A stretch of DNA of 26,986 bases from a virus. Lineage: Duplodnaviria; Caudoviricetes. This document shows, in pieces, positions 10,109 to 26,958 of the stretch; the stretch's first letter is position 1, and every line of letters starts with the position of its first letter. The stretch spans positions 1 through 26,986 of IMG/VR virus record IMGVR_UViG_3300035134_000016. The stretch is one strand, 5' to 3'. Position numbers and translations under genes: made by a program. The notes beneath the pieces are model-generated. The model made no database searches. It had not been told where the DNA came from and saw only the letters and a list, made by a program, of their open reading frames with translations.

Positions 10109-11680
10109 ATGGCTTATAGTAAGATTGGATGGACAGCACGCGAAGGCGTGGACTTGAACAAATACACAAAATCATCGGAGACGAGCAGCAGCGTAATCCT
10201 TACAAACTCGCCGACGGACATAACGGTTGCAGGGACACCTTTTACAGCAGCCAACATGGCGCACATGGACGACGGGATAGAAGCGAACGACACGGCGATA
10301 ACCGCTGAAATTGCTGACAGGGAAGCAGCGATTACCGCTGAAATTGCTGACAGGGAAGCAGCGATTACCGCTGAAGCATCGGCGAGAGCGTCAGCGGATA
10401 CGACGCTACAGAGCAATATTGATGCAGAAGCGTCTACGCGAGCGGCAGCGGATACGACACTGCAAAGTAATATCGATGCAGAAGCATCGGCGAGAGCATC
10501 TGCGGACGCAACGCTACAAAGCAACATCGATGCAGAAGCATCGGCGAGAGCATCAGCGGATACGACTTTACAAAGCAATATCGATGCAGTCGATTCGTCC
10601 GCTGTGCACAAAACCGGAGCGGAAACGATAGCCGGAGAAAAAACTATATCTGATATAGCAATACTATCGGCGGGCGCACAAGTTGGCCCCAACGCTGCAA
10701 CAGACAATCGGGATCACGTAGCGTATGCGGGCGGTACGGGCATCAGTGACTTTACTACAGCTTTGGCAGCAAAGCGAACGATTGTTGGAACTGTTTATCA
10801 TGAGCCTACAGAGACATGGTACGACATCATTAGTGTGAGGCACCTGAACGGAGCGGACGACGGGAACTTGTACGGGATGTACATACGTGTGCCCTTGTCT
10901 GCTGCTGGAAGTCTTGAATGGGCGAAGCAGACATTCGGGGTGTGGGGCACTCCTGCGACCATCTTAGACAACACGAACTATAAAACTGTCATGTCGTTTG
11001 ATGCATCGCCGACAGACGGCAGTACGAACCTTGTCAACAGCGACGCAGTGCATGATGCCATCGCATCCGAAGCATCGGCGAGAGCATCTGCGGATACGAC
11101 ACTGCAAAGCAACATCGATGCAGAAGCATCGGCGAGAGCATCAGCAGACACGACTTTACAAAACAACATCAATTCCGAGGCGTCTACTAGGGCATCGGCA
11201 GACGCGACACTGCAAAACAACATCAATTCCGAGGCGTCTACTAGGGCTTCTGCCGATACGACACTGCAAAGCAACATCGATGCAGAAGCGTCTACTAGGG
11301 CTTCTGCGGATACGACACTGCAAAGCAACATCGATGCAGTCAGCACTACGATAACCGGCGAGCTGCCAGCATCAGGGGATGCCGGTACTATAACTGCATC
11401 GGATTTGTATACAACGATGGGCGCACTGGTGCCGTCTGTCGGAGATAAGGCGAGAATAAACGGTGGTATAGGAGGCGTAGCCGGCCTGTCCGGCGGTGAC
11501 GGTGATGATTACAACATAAGTCTAGCCGCGGTGAGGCGAATCTCGTCGACAACTATCAGACTGATGGGTATATGCTACTTCAACGCAAACGACAGCAGCG
11601 GGTCGTATACCTCGGGGGCTTATGGTCGCGATATTACGTCAAGCACAACGGGTAGTTGTTCTGGATATATAAATTGGTAA
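10109..11680 (+). CDS. tail fibre/receptor-binding protein with coiled-coil repeat stalks
   Basis: GTPFTAANMAHMDDGI anchor motif, AVHKTGAETIAGEKT fibre motif, 18-aa repeats, last gene before lysis. Confidence 0.85.
   Translation: MAYSKIGWTAREGVDLNKYTKSSETSSSVILTNSPTDITVAGTPFTAANMAHMDDGIEANDTAITAEIADREAAITAEIADREAAITAEASARASADTTLQSNIDAEASTRAAADTTLQSNIDAEASARASADATLQSNIDAEASARASADTTLQSNIDAVDSSAVHKTGAETIAGEKTISDIAILSAGAQVGPNAATDNRDHVAYAGGTGISDFTTALAAKRTIVGTVYHEPTETWYDIISVRHLNGADDGNLYGMYIRVPLSAAGSLEWAKQTFGVWGTPATILDNTNYKTVMSFDASPTDGSTNLVNSDAVHDAIASEASARASADTTLQSNIDAEASARASADTTLQNNINSEASTRASADATLQNNINSEASTRASADTTLQSNIDAEASTRASADTTLQSNIDAVSTTITGELPASGDAGTITASDLYTTMGALVPSVGDKARINGGIGGVAGLSGGDGDDYNISLAAVRRISSTTIRLMGICYFNANDSSGSYTSGAYGRDITSSTTGSCSGYINW
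10295..10372 (+). repeat. 33-bp tandem repeat (11-aa AITAEIADREA), about 2.4 copies
   Basis: Units start at 10295, 10328 and 10361. Confidence 0.9.
10373..10588 (+). repeat. 54-bp tandem repeat block 1 (EASARASADTTLQSNIDA x4)
   Basis: Units at 10373, 10427, 10481 and 10535. Confidence 0.9.
11069..11338 (+). repeat. 54-bp tandem repeat block 2 (same 18-aa unit x5)
   Basis: Units at 11069, 11123, 11177, 11231 and 11285. Confidence 0.9.
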
Positions 11681-11693
11681 AAGGAGGCGCAAG

Positions 11694-12152
11694 ATGTGTA
11701 CAAAAAAAGATGAAATAGTAAAACTAGTAGTGCCGGAAATTGTCAGAATGTTGGTTTTTATTTTCTGCCTGCTCACGATCGGAGCCGTAGGCCGCAAAAG
11801 CGCGTGGGATCTCGCAGCAGATGCATATGCACAGCAGCAAGCGGAGGCGGTGCAAAAAGAACTGTCAAAAAAAGGCGGGGTTATCGATCAGCTAAAAAGC
11901 TTGACTACCGCTGTACAAAGTCTCGTAGACCAGCAAAAAGCGGCAAACATGACGACATGGGCTGTGTACAAGCGGGACATAGAAAAATACGTGCACAGGG
12001 CGCAGGATGACAATCCTTATAACGATCCGACGGCTGACAACATCGACAAAGTTGCGCTTTATCTCAAAGCGATACCCGAGTCCGAAATGTCGGAAGTGGA
12101 CAAGCGGAATGCTGACTGGCTCATTAACGTATATAAGCCGCCGAAGGAGTAA
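11694..12152 (+). CDS. single-TM membrane protein in lysis cassette (holin/antiholin-like)
   Basis: RBS AGGAGG; N-terminal hydrophobic helix (IVRMLVFIFCLLTIGAVG) followed by a soluble helical domain; upstream of the endolysin. Confidence 0.6.
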   Translation: MCTKKDEIVKLVVPEIVRMLVFIFCLLTIGAVGRKSAWDLAADAYAQQQAEAVQKELSKKGGVIDQLKSLTTAVQSLVDQQKAANMTTWAVYKRDIEKYVHRAQDDNPYNDPTADNIDKVALYLKAIPESEMSEVDKRNADWLINVYKPPKE

Positions 12153-12154
12153 TT

Positions 12155-12751
12155 ATGCAAATCAAAACGCAGTTATTGACTGTGAATCCGTATTCTCGGC
12201 CAGGTCGGCGCCTGGTGGGAGTCAAGGCAATTGTGATGCATAACACCGGTGTACCAAAGCAATCAGCGCAGACAGTGCGCAACTTTTACGAACAGCGGAA
12301 ACACGGGGGAACGGGATACGGCAGCGCTCATGCAGTGATCGGGTTACGGGGTGAGATCATACGCATAATTCCCACTAACGAAATGGCCTACGGGTGCGGG
12401 GTTCCAGACTTTCAGGATGAACACAAAGATCCTGAAAGTGACCGGTTTTATACAGACTACGCGCGCGAACAGTTTGGGGTGTACGCAGAGGATTACAGGC
12501 ACAAAAGCCCAAACCAGTGCACGCTGAATATTGAACTGTGTCAACTTGATGCTGCCGGTAATTTCAGCGATGAAACACTGAAAGCAGCGGCGGAATATGT
12601 AAAAACACTGGCTGGCTTTTATCGGCTTGAAATCGACACGGATCATATCACGACACATCACAATGTTGTCGGGTGGAAGCCCTGCCCGTTGCTGTGGACA
12701 AACCTCCCTGAAAAGCTGGGCGAGTTCGTAGACATGGTAAAGGGGGTCTAA
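12155..12751 (+). CDS. endolysin, N-acetylmuramoyl-L-alanine amidase (Amidase_2)
   Basis: IVMHNT, SAH, E.AY, IELC and HH.V.GWK.CP Zn-amidase motifs; no cell-wall-binding domain. Confidence 0.92.
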   Translation: MQIKTQLLTVNPYSRPGRRLVGVKAIVMHNTGVPKQSAQTVRNFYEQRKHGGTGYGSAHAVIGLRGEIIRIIPTNEMAYGCGVPDFQDEHKDPESDRFYTDYAREQFGVYAEDYRHKSPNQCTLNIELCQLDAAGNFSDETLKAAAEYVKTLAGFYRLEIDTDHITTHHNVVGWKPCPLLWTNLPEKLGEFVDMVKGV

Positions 12752-12990
12752 TGGACAAAACAAAAATGACGGAAGAAGTGCCAGGGACGACATCAAGCAA
12801 GCGCGTTATGGGCACGGTAGCAATGGCGGCCGGTATTGGGCTGCTGCTTTTTGTCGGTGTGATGGGGTGTTTCCGCCAGTCAATGCCAAATGCTCAAGTA
12901 AGTATACAGGCAGGGACCGCGTTAGCGTGTATCGGAGCCGGTCTGCTGGGCGTCACAGTAGTAGAAAAGTTTGCAGACAAGGGGGCGTAA
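12751..12990 (+). CDS. putative holin (2 TM helices)
   Basis: 79 aa, SSKR motif followed by two hydrophobic helices and a charged C-terminus; TAATG-coupled to the endolysin. Confidence 0.65.
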   Translation: MDKTKMTEEVPGTTSSKRVMGTVAMAAGIGLLLFVGVMGCFRQSMPNAQVSIQAGTALACIGAGLLGVTVVEKFADKGA

Positions 12991-13471
12991 TATTTGCAAA
13001 AGATTATTTTTATTGCTAGTATTAGCTGCTTGCTGCTGGCAGGGTGTAGCACAGTCAGCCCAATCGTACAGTGTGACGGAGCTACAACTACAGCAACTAG
13101 AGACGTTGTATCAGAAATCCAGGGACAGCAGGCAGACATCGCTGCAACAGCTCAACGTGTTACAGACAAAAGCACAGACGTTGCAGAGCAAAGCGGAGCA
13201 GTTGCAGCAGGAATCAGTGAAGTTGCAGGAACGCTTGCAGATGGAACGGACGACGACGCAGCTTTTATCCAACTCTGTCAGCAAATTAGAAGGCAATCTA
13301 CAGACGCAGCAGGAGCAAGCAGCTGTGATGCAGCAAAAGTACAATGATGAAAAACTTGCATGTCAGAAAACCAAAAACCAGCGCAATATACTATTCTTCG
13401 TAGCGCTTGGGTTGGTTGTCGTAATTGGCGGTTATGTTTTTCTAAAAATATCTAAAATAATTTTGTGGTAA
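12971..13471 (+). CDS. putative inner-membrane spanin-like protein (signal peptide, coiled coil, C-terminal TM)
   Basis: KRLFLLLVLAACCWQGVA signal-like segment, Gln-rich heptads, ILFFVALGLVVVIGGYVFL TM. Ends just before the terminator. Start codon is uncertain. Confidence 0.65.
   Translation: MQTRGRNICKRLFLLLVLAACCWQGVAQSAQSYSVTELQLQQLETLYQKSRDSRQTSLQQLNVLQTKAQTLQSKAEQLQQESVKLQERLQMERTTTQLLSNSVSKLEGNLQTQQEQAAVMQQKYNDEKLACQKTKNQRNILFFVALGLVVVIGGYVFLKISKIILW
12994..13347 (+). CDS. putative outer-membrane spanin-like lipoprotein, embedded in the previous gene
   Basis: TTG start 7 nt after GGGGGC; MQKIIFIASISCLLLAG/C lipobox. Confidence 0.7.
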   Translation: MQKIIFIASISCLLLAGCSTVSPIVQCDGATTTATRDVVSEIQGQQADIAATAQRVTDKSTDVAEQSGAVAAGISEVAGTLADGTDDDAAFIQLCQQIRRQSTDAAGASSCDAAKVQ

Positions 13472-13477
13472 AGCAGG

Positions 13478-13510
13478 GCGGTTGACTGGATATTGTCAAC
13501 CGCTTTTTTT
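13478..13510 (+). terminator. intrinsic terminator ending the late operon
   Basis: GCGGTTGAC-8nt-GTCAACCGC followed by T7, between convergent genes. Confidence 0.9.
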
Positions 13511-26547: not shown

Positions 26548-26619
26548 GGTTCCGTGGTAAATCTGGTAACCGCTGTATTATCGATTGCAGTGATGTGGGT
26601 TCGAATCCCGCCGGAACCT
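26548..26619 (+). tRNA. tRNA-like element with 8-nt anticodon loop (undetermined isotype or pseudo-tRNA)
   Basis: Acceptor GGTTCCG/CGGAACC, T-arm GTGGG-TTCGAAT-CCCGC, anticodon stem CTGTA/TGCAG with loop TTATCGAT, weak D-arm with GG, no encoded CCA. Confidence 0.7.
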
Positions 26620-26643: not shown

Positions 26644-26958
26644 ATGAAACTGGTTGCAGTATTAATGGCGCTGTCACTAGCGGCGTCAGGGTTCGCGGAA
26701 AGCGCGACAATCAAGAAGGCTCAAGAAAACATTGAGCAGCAGAGACAGGTAAATCAAAATATCGTCTCTGCTGTAAAGGACTCAGATCAAAGTCTGGATG
26801 ATCTTTCTGCAATGCTGAAAAAGGTTGCCGCGGAAGATGCGGCTTGTCGTAGGAGTGTTGCAACGTCGTGCACGCTGTGTTTCATCGCAGGCGTTGTCAT
26901 TGGTGGTGTTGCGGTGGGAGCCGTAACGACGTCGGAATGGGTGAGCCCGCAGTGGTAA
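26644..26958 (+). CDS. exported/membrane protein (signal peptide, coiled coil, C-terminal TM)
   Basis: RBS AAGGGGGT; MKLVAVLMALSLAASGFA signal; FIAGVVIGGVAVGAV TM. Confidence 0.75.
   Translation: MKLVAVLMALSLAASGFAESATIKKAQENIEQQRQVNQNIVSAVKDSDQSLDDLSAMLKKVAAEDAACRRSVATSCTLCFIAGVVIGGVAVGAVTTSEWVSPQW

Follow-up and report, generated by a model that had tools for sequence, protein, structure and literature searches.

A candidate two-component spanin with inverted anchors, encoded by two overlapping frames with shared start region in a phage of a likely spirochaetal host

The DNA analysed here, called the window, is the whole 27-kb stretch (26,986 nucleotides) of a virus record, with siphophage tail genes on the + strand that include those for the major tail protein and the tape measure. 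The gene at positions 10109–11680 resembles those for tail fibres; it contains two blocks of repeats, each of 14 residues per unit, which are the likely reason why its antisense strand and other frames are also open, over 106–197 codons. The lysis genes follow. Positions 11694–12152 (+), upstream of the endolysin, encode a 152-aa protein with one N-terminal hydrophobic segment, probably a product of the holin/antiholin type to judge from its slot; at cut-off Pfam assigned it to no family, and its Rz-like matches among the PHROGs are weak (E 0.018–0.031). The next gene (12155–12751, +) encodes the endolysin, an N-acetylmuramoyl-L-alanine amidase (PF01510, E 2e-16; phrog_9611 endolysin, E 1e-29). 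Since its closest named relatives come from Treponema or Spirochaetaceae genomes (7 of 10 loci), the host of the phage is likely a spirochaete, presumably one of the Treponematales. Positions 12751–12990 (+) encode a 79-aa protein with two hydrophobic segments, which would be holin-like by its size, hydrophobicity and position; Pfam, PHROGs and NCBIfam gave no family for it at cut-off.

The gene pair described in this work is the final unit of this + strand operon, with a convergent DNA methylase gene opposite. It is thus linked to a holin-like gene and an endolysin gene, in a phage whose host is presumably diderm. A hairpin with a T run at 13475–13506 (+) is at most a consensus match to an intrinsic terminator, as two such hairpins were found in the window against 1.2 expected in shuffles. 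When the 27-kb window, which is an incomplete phage genome, was scanned for lipoprotein-like ORFs, the overlapped lipoprotein was the sole one.

The long frame is open from 12965 to 13468, with its stop codon at 13469–13471, and encodes a 159-aa protein (12992–13471, +), a candidate type I i-spanin. It presents a signal-peptide-like segment (residues 1–23) with basic N-terminus and hydrophobic core, a conserved YxITExEL-type motif (26–37), a Gln-rich helix and a C-terminal transmembrane (TM) segment (133–151), whose 19 hydrophobic residues are followed by KISKIILW. The TM segment (ILFFVALGLVVVIGGYVFL; codons at 13388–13444, +, 3′ of the end of the lipoprotein frame) has a mean Kyte-Doolittle hydropathy of 2.78 and sums to −2.9 on a Hessa-type scale. 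AlphaFold2 models the protein as a single long helix over residues 30–158 (pLDDT 92.6), and it scores 91 bits against a profile built without the window sequence.

The second frame, at offset −1, runs from TTG 12994 to the stop codon at 13345–13347 (12994–13347, +) and lies fully inside the long frame. It encodes a 117-aa lipoprotein, the candidate o-spanin, with a LLAG/C18 site that fits the lipobox consensus, a helix at residues 29–84 and a short helix at 88–106. The AlphaFold2 model has a pLDDT of 79.7, and the sequence scores 56 bits against a leave-out profile, with a maximum of 20 for shuffled sequences. Both chains are modelled as helical, coiled-coil-prone periplasmic domains, and the pair has four periplasmic cysteines. 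An earlier note on this DNA had described two + strand frames overlapping for 354 nt, the LLAG/C lipoprotein, and a long frame with signal-like N-terminus, coil and C-terminal TM, and in all three respects its description holds for the window.

A Shine-Dalgarno (SD)-like AAGGGGG is found at 12979–12985 (+), within the final codons of the holin-like gene (stop TAA at 12988–12990). It lies 6 nt before ATT 12992 and 8 nt before TTG 12994; the corresponding spacers are 4–6 nt in 10 of 11 other window genes checked. The two starts overlap as ATTTG (12992–12996, +), where ATT opens the long frame and TTG the lipoprotein frame, a form of the family motif NTGTG. The note had also seen one ribosome-binding site before both starts and no good one at TTG 12971, and the sequence analysis agrees: TTG 12971 was rejected as the long-frame start because no SD match precedes it and the homologues begin level with 12992. 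The ATT/TTG combination is taken as a real variant, since the start region of one relative (L149, ATGTGCAAAAAATT) is nearly identical and the window allele is carried, with 0 differences, by the deeper contig of run X1 (depth 10.7), a wetland metagenome from which the window may come. Related contigs in runs X1 and X2 carry one extra G behind 12994, which gives TTG/GTG (X1 depth 4.1).

The copy in the window may still be impaired by its weak ATT, or the long chain may be lipidated at its own LAA/C (residues 11–14) to give a one-piece form; both would be compatible with the reading preferred below. The relatives have ATG or TTG at the long start, the contigs with the extra G come from two runs, and L11-A12-A13-C14 fits the lipobox consensus. 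Nevertheless, the window allele is the one in the deeper contig, ATT stands 6 nt from the SD, within the usual spacing of the phage, both frames are intact to their ends, and the long-frame Cys is not conserved across the family. We consider such impairment or lipidation unlikely.

The chance of such an overlap was estimated in several ways. When codons were redrawn with the long protein fixed and with phage codon usage, the −1 frame stayed open over 117 codons in 0.3% of 20,000 trials, and within-gene permutation gave 1.2% of 20,000 trials; in 19 other window genes, none of 2662 windows of 117 codons had an open −1 frame. At a laxer threshold of 95 codons, P is 0.08 for the window alone, and the proof of dual coding therefore rests on the family and not on the window copy.

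A search of 1.84 billion representatives with the long protein gave 48 matches at E ≤ 0.001, one of them the window's own protein. The full-length members among the 47 relatives all show a signal, a helix and a C-terminal hydrophobic segment. At E ≤ 1e-6, the profile had matches in 30 of the 301 genomes sampled from the family around Treponema socranskii (G001), in 36 of the 401 sampled from the order around G005 and in 5 of the 401 sampled from the phylum; these samples share genomes, and at least one genome counted (G393) is false. Three false profile matches were dropped, one a long coiled-coil protein (L101) and two due to repeats (L155, L156). The lipoprotein profile retrieved 79 database proteins, the named ones being “hypothetical” or “Lipoprotein”, with named relatives from T. 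denticola, T. putidum, T. pedis and Treponema sp. OMZ. A single-sequence search with the lipoprotein had found no protein homologue before a profile was used. With the long protein as a single query, scans of genome_contigs, viral_contigs, metagenome_contigs and GenBank phages brought up no locus, and the atlas search of P0003 returned clusters without names only.

The 49 loci classified comprise 36 regular pairs (class A), 6 irregular class A loci, 4 fused genes and 3 loci of a class B. Among the irregular loci, L124 has an internal duplication with both frames kept, L129 is broken, and one near start is missing in the other four, that of the long frame in L146, L147 and L150 and that of the partner in L144. 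The −1 frame is open over 99–139 codons in all 36 full-length class A sequences, the window included, against 1.2 expected from within-gene permutation, and the +1 frame is open over at most 53 codons. One pair cut by a contig end (L145) was left out of this count, of the tail analysis and of the tree, and another cut locus (L159) of the tail analysis. As the loci are related, these are not 36 independent events. A correlation between the lengths of the two chains was discarded as a trivial effect of the shared DNA.

Class A proteins are 13–32% identical to those of the window. The lipobox Cys is the sole invariant column (37 of 37 lipoproteins); the residue before it is G, A or S in 36 of 37, and 15 of the 37 fit the strict consensus. 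A signal-like N-terminus and a C-terminal TM with a basic tail are present in all 36 full-length long chains. The lipoprotein's C-terminal FxxIIxRIR helix has a net charge of at least +1 in 34 of 37 pairs, and the N-terminal YxITExEL helix of the long chain one of −1 or lower in 35 of 37. Periplasmic cysteines beyond position +2 are lacking in 29 of 37 pairs, and 16 of 37 have a Cys at +2.

The two starts, chosen by hand from candidate lists, are within 28 nt of each other in all 37 class A pairs and within 4 nt in 31. Ten pairs have an NTGTG-type overlap (+2), the ATTTG of the window among them, and 21 an ATGNATG overlap (−4); in the remaining six the starts are 7–28 nt apart. In the +2 group (n = 10) one SD lies a median of 4 and 6 nt before the two starts, and in the −4 group 9 and 5 nt (SD found in 19 of 21). 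Among 50 stored family proteins, 11 begin with MC or MW, that is, with ATG-TG. From this geometry we infer that ribosomes would start both frames from one SD. The homologue comparison that the note had proposed as a check was thus carried out, and it found both frames, the lipobox Cys and the overlapping starts behind one SD to be kept, so that it did not refute the note's reading. At the level of sequence, both frames are shown to be coding, with starts overlapping behind one SD, and the two-frame feature of the window is confirmed as real and conserved.

Two of the irregular loci, L146 (− strand, about 1895–1865) and L147 (781–812), present one SD and one ATG followed by T13 or T10 in the shared signal region, with the second start absent. 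These runs could reflect either homopolymer errors of assembly or slippage that feeds both frames from one start.

The genomic context of the pairs is that of lysis genes. In 24 of 36 class A loci, the 1.5 kb upstream of the pair contain a gene for a Pfam peptidoglycan hydrolase from one of four families unrelated to each other (Amidase_2, CHAP, Peptidase_M15_4 or M23); one further locus has a Pfam holin upstream. Of the 12 loci without a Pfam hydrolase, this one included, three are at contig edges, two (L103 and L132) are described below, and the rest have unassigned or DUF261-like genes upstream. DUF261 (PF03196) genes occupy the usual place of the endolysin, directly 5′ of the pair, in L135, L140, L148 and L163, and similar ORFs occur in L122 and L134; DUF261 is a candidate for an unrecognised endolysin family. 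L103 and L132, sister sequences in the tree, have intact pairs among housekeeping-type genes (RidA/L-PSP, metallophosphoesterase) with no phage gene in view, a possible case of domestication or of a prophage remnant.

Among 27 loci with a related endolysin, 10 carry a canonical overlapped pair behind the holin (N-terminal TM protein and downstream lipoprotein), 4 carry a window-type two-frame pair and none carries both; 6 others are monoderm-like cassettes without either pair, 6 have neither and 1 is cut. The window-type pair therefore appears to be an exchangeable occupant of the spanin slot. The canonical pairs of these related Treponema phages (L001–L038) sit in the same slot, behind the same amidase family and a holin-like gene, and gave weak Rz-like PHROG matches in the 8 of 8 proteins tested. 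They differ in having the N-terminal TM protein first and a lipoprotein that starts in its distal half, and no homology to the window pair was seen.

Other observations were made in these loci. Behind a related amidase, L018 (3594–4122) has the layout of the window, a lipoprotein with a signal/coil/C-terminal TM protein and starts 7 nt apart, with no detectable match to the family profiles. Reverse-transcriptase-like genes lie beside tail and lysis genes in L118 (PF00078) and, as identified by eye, in L005 and L006, and are suggestive of diversity-generating retroelements.

Six relatives (L125, L126, L128, L130, L152, L153) encode a single chain with the lipobox Cys, a lipoprotein-like first helix, the distal helix of the long frame and the C-terminal TM. 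An alignment of five of them matches the profile of the lipoprotein family at 98.5% and that of the long family at 99.5%, while the two family profiles match each other at only 25%. In L125 both part-profiles match in one frame (32 and 34 bits), and no match was found there for the N-terminal motif of the long chain or the C-terminal helix of the lipoprotein; both putative docking segments are missing from the fusions. Single-sequence part-profile scores are weak for L126, L128 and L130; L128 has R before the lipobox Cys, and a recognised endolysin adjoins one of the six genes (L125). The periplasmic part has 141–150 residues in fused chains, and medians of 76 plus 104 in split chains. On sequence grounds, the fused relatives have the topology of u-spanins, with lipobox and C-terminal TM on one chain; in the window these are on two.

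The fused chains group together in a single clade (UFBoot 94) that is nested within the split forms, in a midpoint-rooted tree that includes five of the six and is based on a short unrooted alignment (159 columns). Because of this nesting, derivation of the fused from the split form is favoured. As the two parts overlap on the DNA of a split locus, their fusion requires that a short stretch be duplicated and read in two frames, and L124 shows a duplication of this kind.

Databases gave little help with the pair itself. Against spanin families, the best PHROG matches, phrog_214 (E 0.008) and phrog_1804 (E 0.004), concern the window only, and there were none across 37 members; Pfam and NCBIfam assigned the pair to no family at cut-off. 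A Foldseek search of viral structures gave nothing at E ≤ 0.001 and a PDB sequence search nothing significant, as expected for plain helices.

Then, we propose, with a probability of about two in three, that the locus encodes a two-component spanin of inverted topology, which would connect the inner with the outer membrane of its host, probably a spirochaete, and disrupt the latter once the endolysin has done its work. The distinct class with inverted anchors suggested by the note finds support in the endolysin context, the exchange with canonical pairs and the fusions of u-spanin topology. Ribosomes loaded at the single SD would choose either start, so that the amounts of both chains would be tied. 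The long product would lose its signal peptide and be held in the inner membrane by the C-terminal TM with its basic residues inside, as a type I i-spanin, and its helix of about 105 residues would point outward. The −1 product would receive its lipid at Cys18 and be delivered to the outer membrane as the o-spanin. The membrane-distal ends may dock, with the acidic YxITExEL helix at the N-terminus of the long chain against the basic FxxIIxRIR helix at the C-terminus of the lipoprotein. After removal of the peptidoglycan, the helices would fold back and fuse the membranes, by analogy with lambda Rz/Rz1.

Class B relatives bear on the placement of the two chains. These loci (L010, L020, L046, L102, L127, L131, L148, L157–L160, L163) keep the twin-start two-frame layout, and their −1 partner carries a TM at the N-terminus and lacks a clear lipobox. 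An inner-membrane stop-transfer anchor is expected to consist of a strong hydrophobic segment with K/R behind it. The long-chain tails of class A are strongly hydrophobic, with a median of 3 K/R behind them (n = 36), while those of class B are weak and Gly/Ala-rich, with a median of 1 (n = 11); the differences between the classes in hydrophobicity and in K/R and Gly/Ala content have p values of about 1e-5 to 6e-5, for loci that are not independent. Each pair thus seems, by its predicted segments, to have one inner-membrane anchor, which would therefore place the class A lipoprotein in the outer membrane. A stand-alone ORF of the window, distant from the lysis cassette (26644–26958, +; 104 aa), has a layout like class B long chains, with a signal peptide, a coiled coil and a Gly-rich hydrophobic C-terminus, but its −1 frame is short; its Rz-like/LysB matches, over the N-terminus, are weak. 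Just 5′ of it, ARAGORN called a tRNA with an irregular four-base anticodon (atcg) at 26548–26619 (+).

The main rival reading starts from the same relatives and assigns the −1 product to the inner membrane in every pair: the roles would be reversed, or both anchors would be in the inner membrane, with the lipoprotein as inner-membrane anchor and the C-terminal helix of the long chain entering or attacking the outer membrane. As class B keeps the two-frame layout with an N-terminal TM partner, parsimony would have the −1 product in the inner membrane throughout; class B long chains match those of class A at 98.8%, a partly circular value, since most were found with the class A profile. An inner-membrane lipoprotein is also named as a possible i-spanin in the text of Kongari et al. 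2018 (PMC6139136). However, the class A tails look like stop-transfer anchors, unlike those of class B, and the match between class B partners and class A lipoproteins is confined to the first 24 residues. Furthermore, a fused chain anchored in the inner membrane at both of its ends would not span the periplasm. A reversal of roles is for these reasons improbable.

A real two-frame envelope pair could also serve a purpose other than lysis, such as superinfection exclusion or membrane tethering for the lysogen. This would agree with the lack of matches to known spanins, with the location of L103 and L132 outside recognisable phage context, and with a weak match to the Cor exclusion family (E 0.013) over the signal region. 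Against it stand the position of the pair, last on the late strand behind the four unrelated hydrolase families, the exchange with canonical spanin pairs in that slot, and the finding of no second lipoprotein-like ORF in the incomplete genome of the window; we regard a non-lysis role as distinctly improbable.

The active product might instead be a one-piece spanin, made by +1 frameshifting or polymerase slippage from the lipoprotein into the long frame, with the separate products as by-products. Such a product, with its lipobox, helix and C-terminal TM, would share the topology of the natural fusions, and the single ATG and T runs of L146 and L147 would suit it. Yet 36 regular loci preserve a separate start and signal peptide for the long frame, and the lipoprotein retains a stop and a C-terminal helix of its own. 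No conserved frameshift signal was found in the overlaps of 37 loci; A7/T7 runs or CTT-type sites occur in 12 of 37, mostly out of frame, and none in the window. In the fusions, moreover, part of the shared stretch is read two times, each time in another frame, which calls for duplication and not for a simple shift, so this alternative is highly improbable. That the lipoprotein and the 11694–12152 protein form a separated canonical spanin, with the long frame as accessory, is almost negligible despite the N-terminal TM of that protein and its weak Rz-like PHROG matches (E 0.018, 0.031), because such an N-terminal TM gene precedes the endolysin even where a full canonical pair follows, and it is the long frame that stays with the lipoprotein across 36 loci and fuses to it.

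The proposed two-component spanin with inverted anchors can be compared with known systems. Like the embedded spanins of the lambda Rz/Rz1 type, it lies at the end of a holin-endolysin cassette, with a lipoprotein gene embedded in another frame of a gene for a coiled-coil membrane protein. Rz is a type II protein with an N-terminal TM, whereas the long chain begins with a signal peptide and carries its TM at the C-terminus; embedded o-spanins mostly start mid-gene, whereas in window-type pairs one SD precedes both starts, which share one spot; the chains would dock N- to C-terminus instead of C to C; and the family mostly lacks periplasmic cysteines and has no significant sequence similarity to that type. 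According to the covered sections of Kongari et al. (PMC6139136), i-spanins are defined as type II, the embedded o-spanin starts at 0.4–0.5 L in about 70%, a −1 embedded o-spanin is found in 116 catalogued cases, and periplasmic Cys occurs in 507 of 528 two-component spanins. They name a type I protein with a C-terminal TM as a possible i-spanin outside the search criteria, and the main text does not mention spirochaetes. The pair therefore falls outside the canonical two-component class in topology (no type II i-spanin) and gene layout (no mid-gene start), and most likely works like a canonical two-component spanin nevertheless.

The fused relatives resemble T1 gp11 u-spanins in their N-terminal lipobox and C-terminal TM, and the split pair has the same anchors on two chains. 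On the other hand, the periplasmic domain of the gp11 type is mainly beta, while the window chains are modelled as helical and the fused chains align to these helices. In the same sections of PMC6139136, no u-spanin has detectable similarity to an o-spanin and an independent origin is concluded; the fused chains, unlike the u-spanins catalogued there, match both parts of a two-component pair. The Rz/Rz1 pair of Shewanella LambdaSo (bioRxiv 10.1101/2024.01.23.576932), tested by experiment, is also nested and was first overlooked; it is canonical, with an N-terminal TM and a lipoprotein that has its own SD in the 3′ half. A search of the open literature found no description of the inverted twin-start architecture, and the sections covered of PMC8705779, PMC13474147, PMC7660901 and PMC4075078 contain nothing on inverted topology.

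The pair gives a likely function to many “hypothetical” genes of Treponema prophages. Overlapping starts behind one SD, retained in two geometries between proteins of 20–30% identity, offer a natural system for studying how a start codon is chosen and how the ratio of two subunits is set. In addition, the fused relatives suggest how one-piece spanins could arise, and the occurrence of fused and split natural versions makes the origin of these spanins testable.
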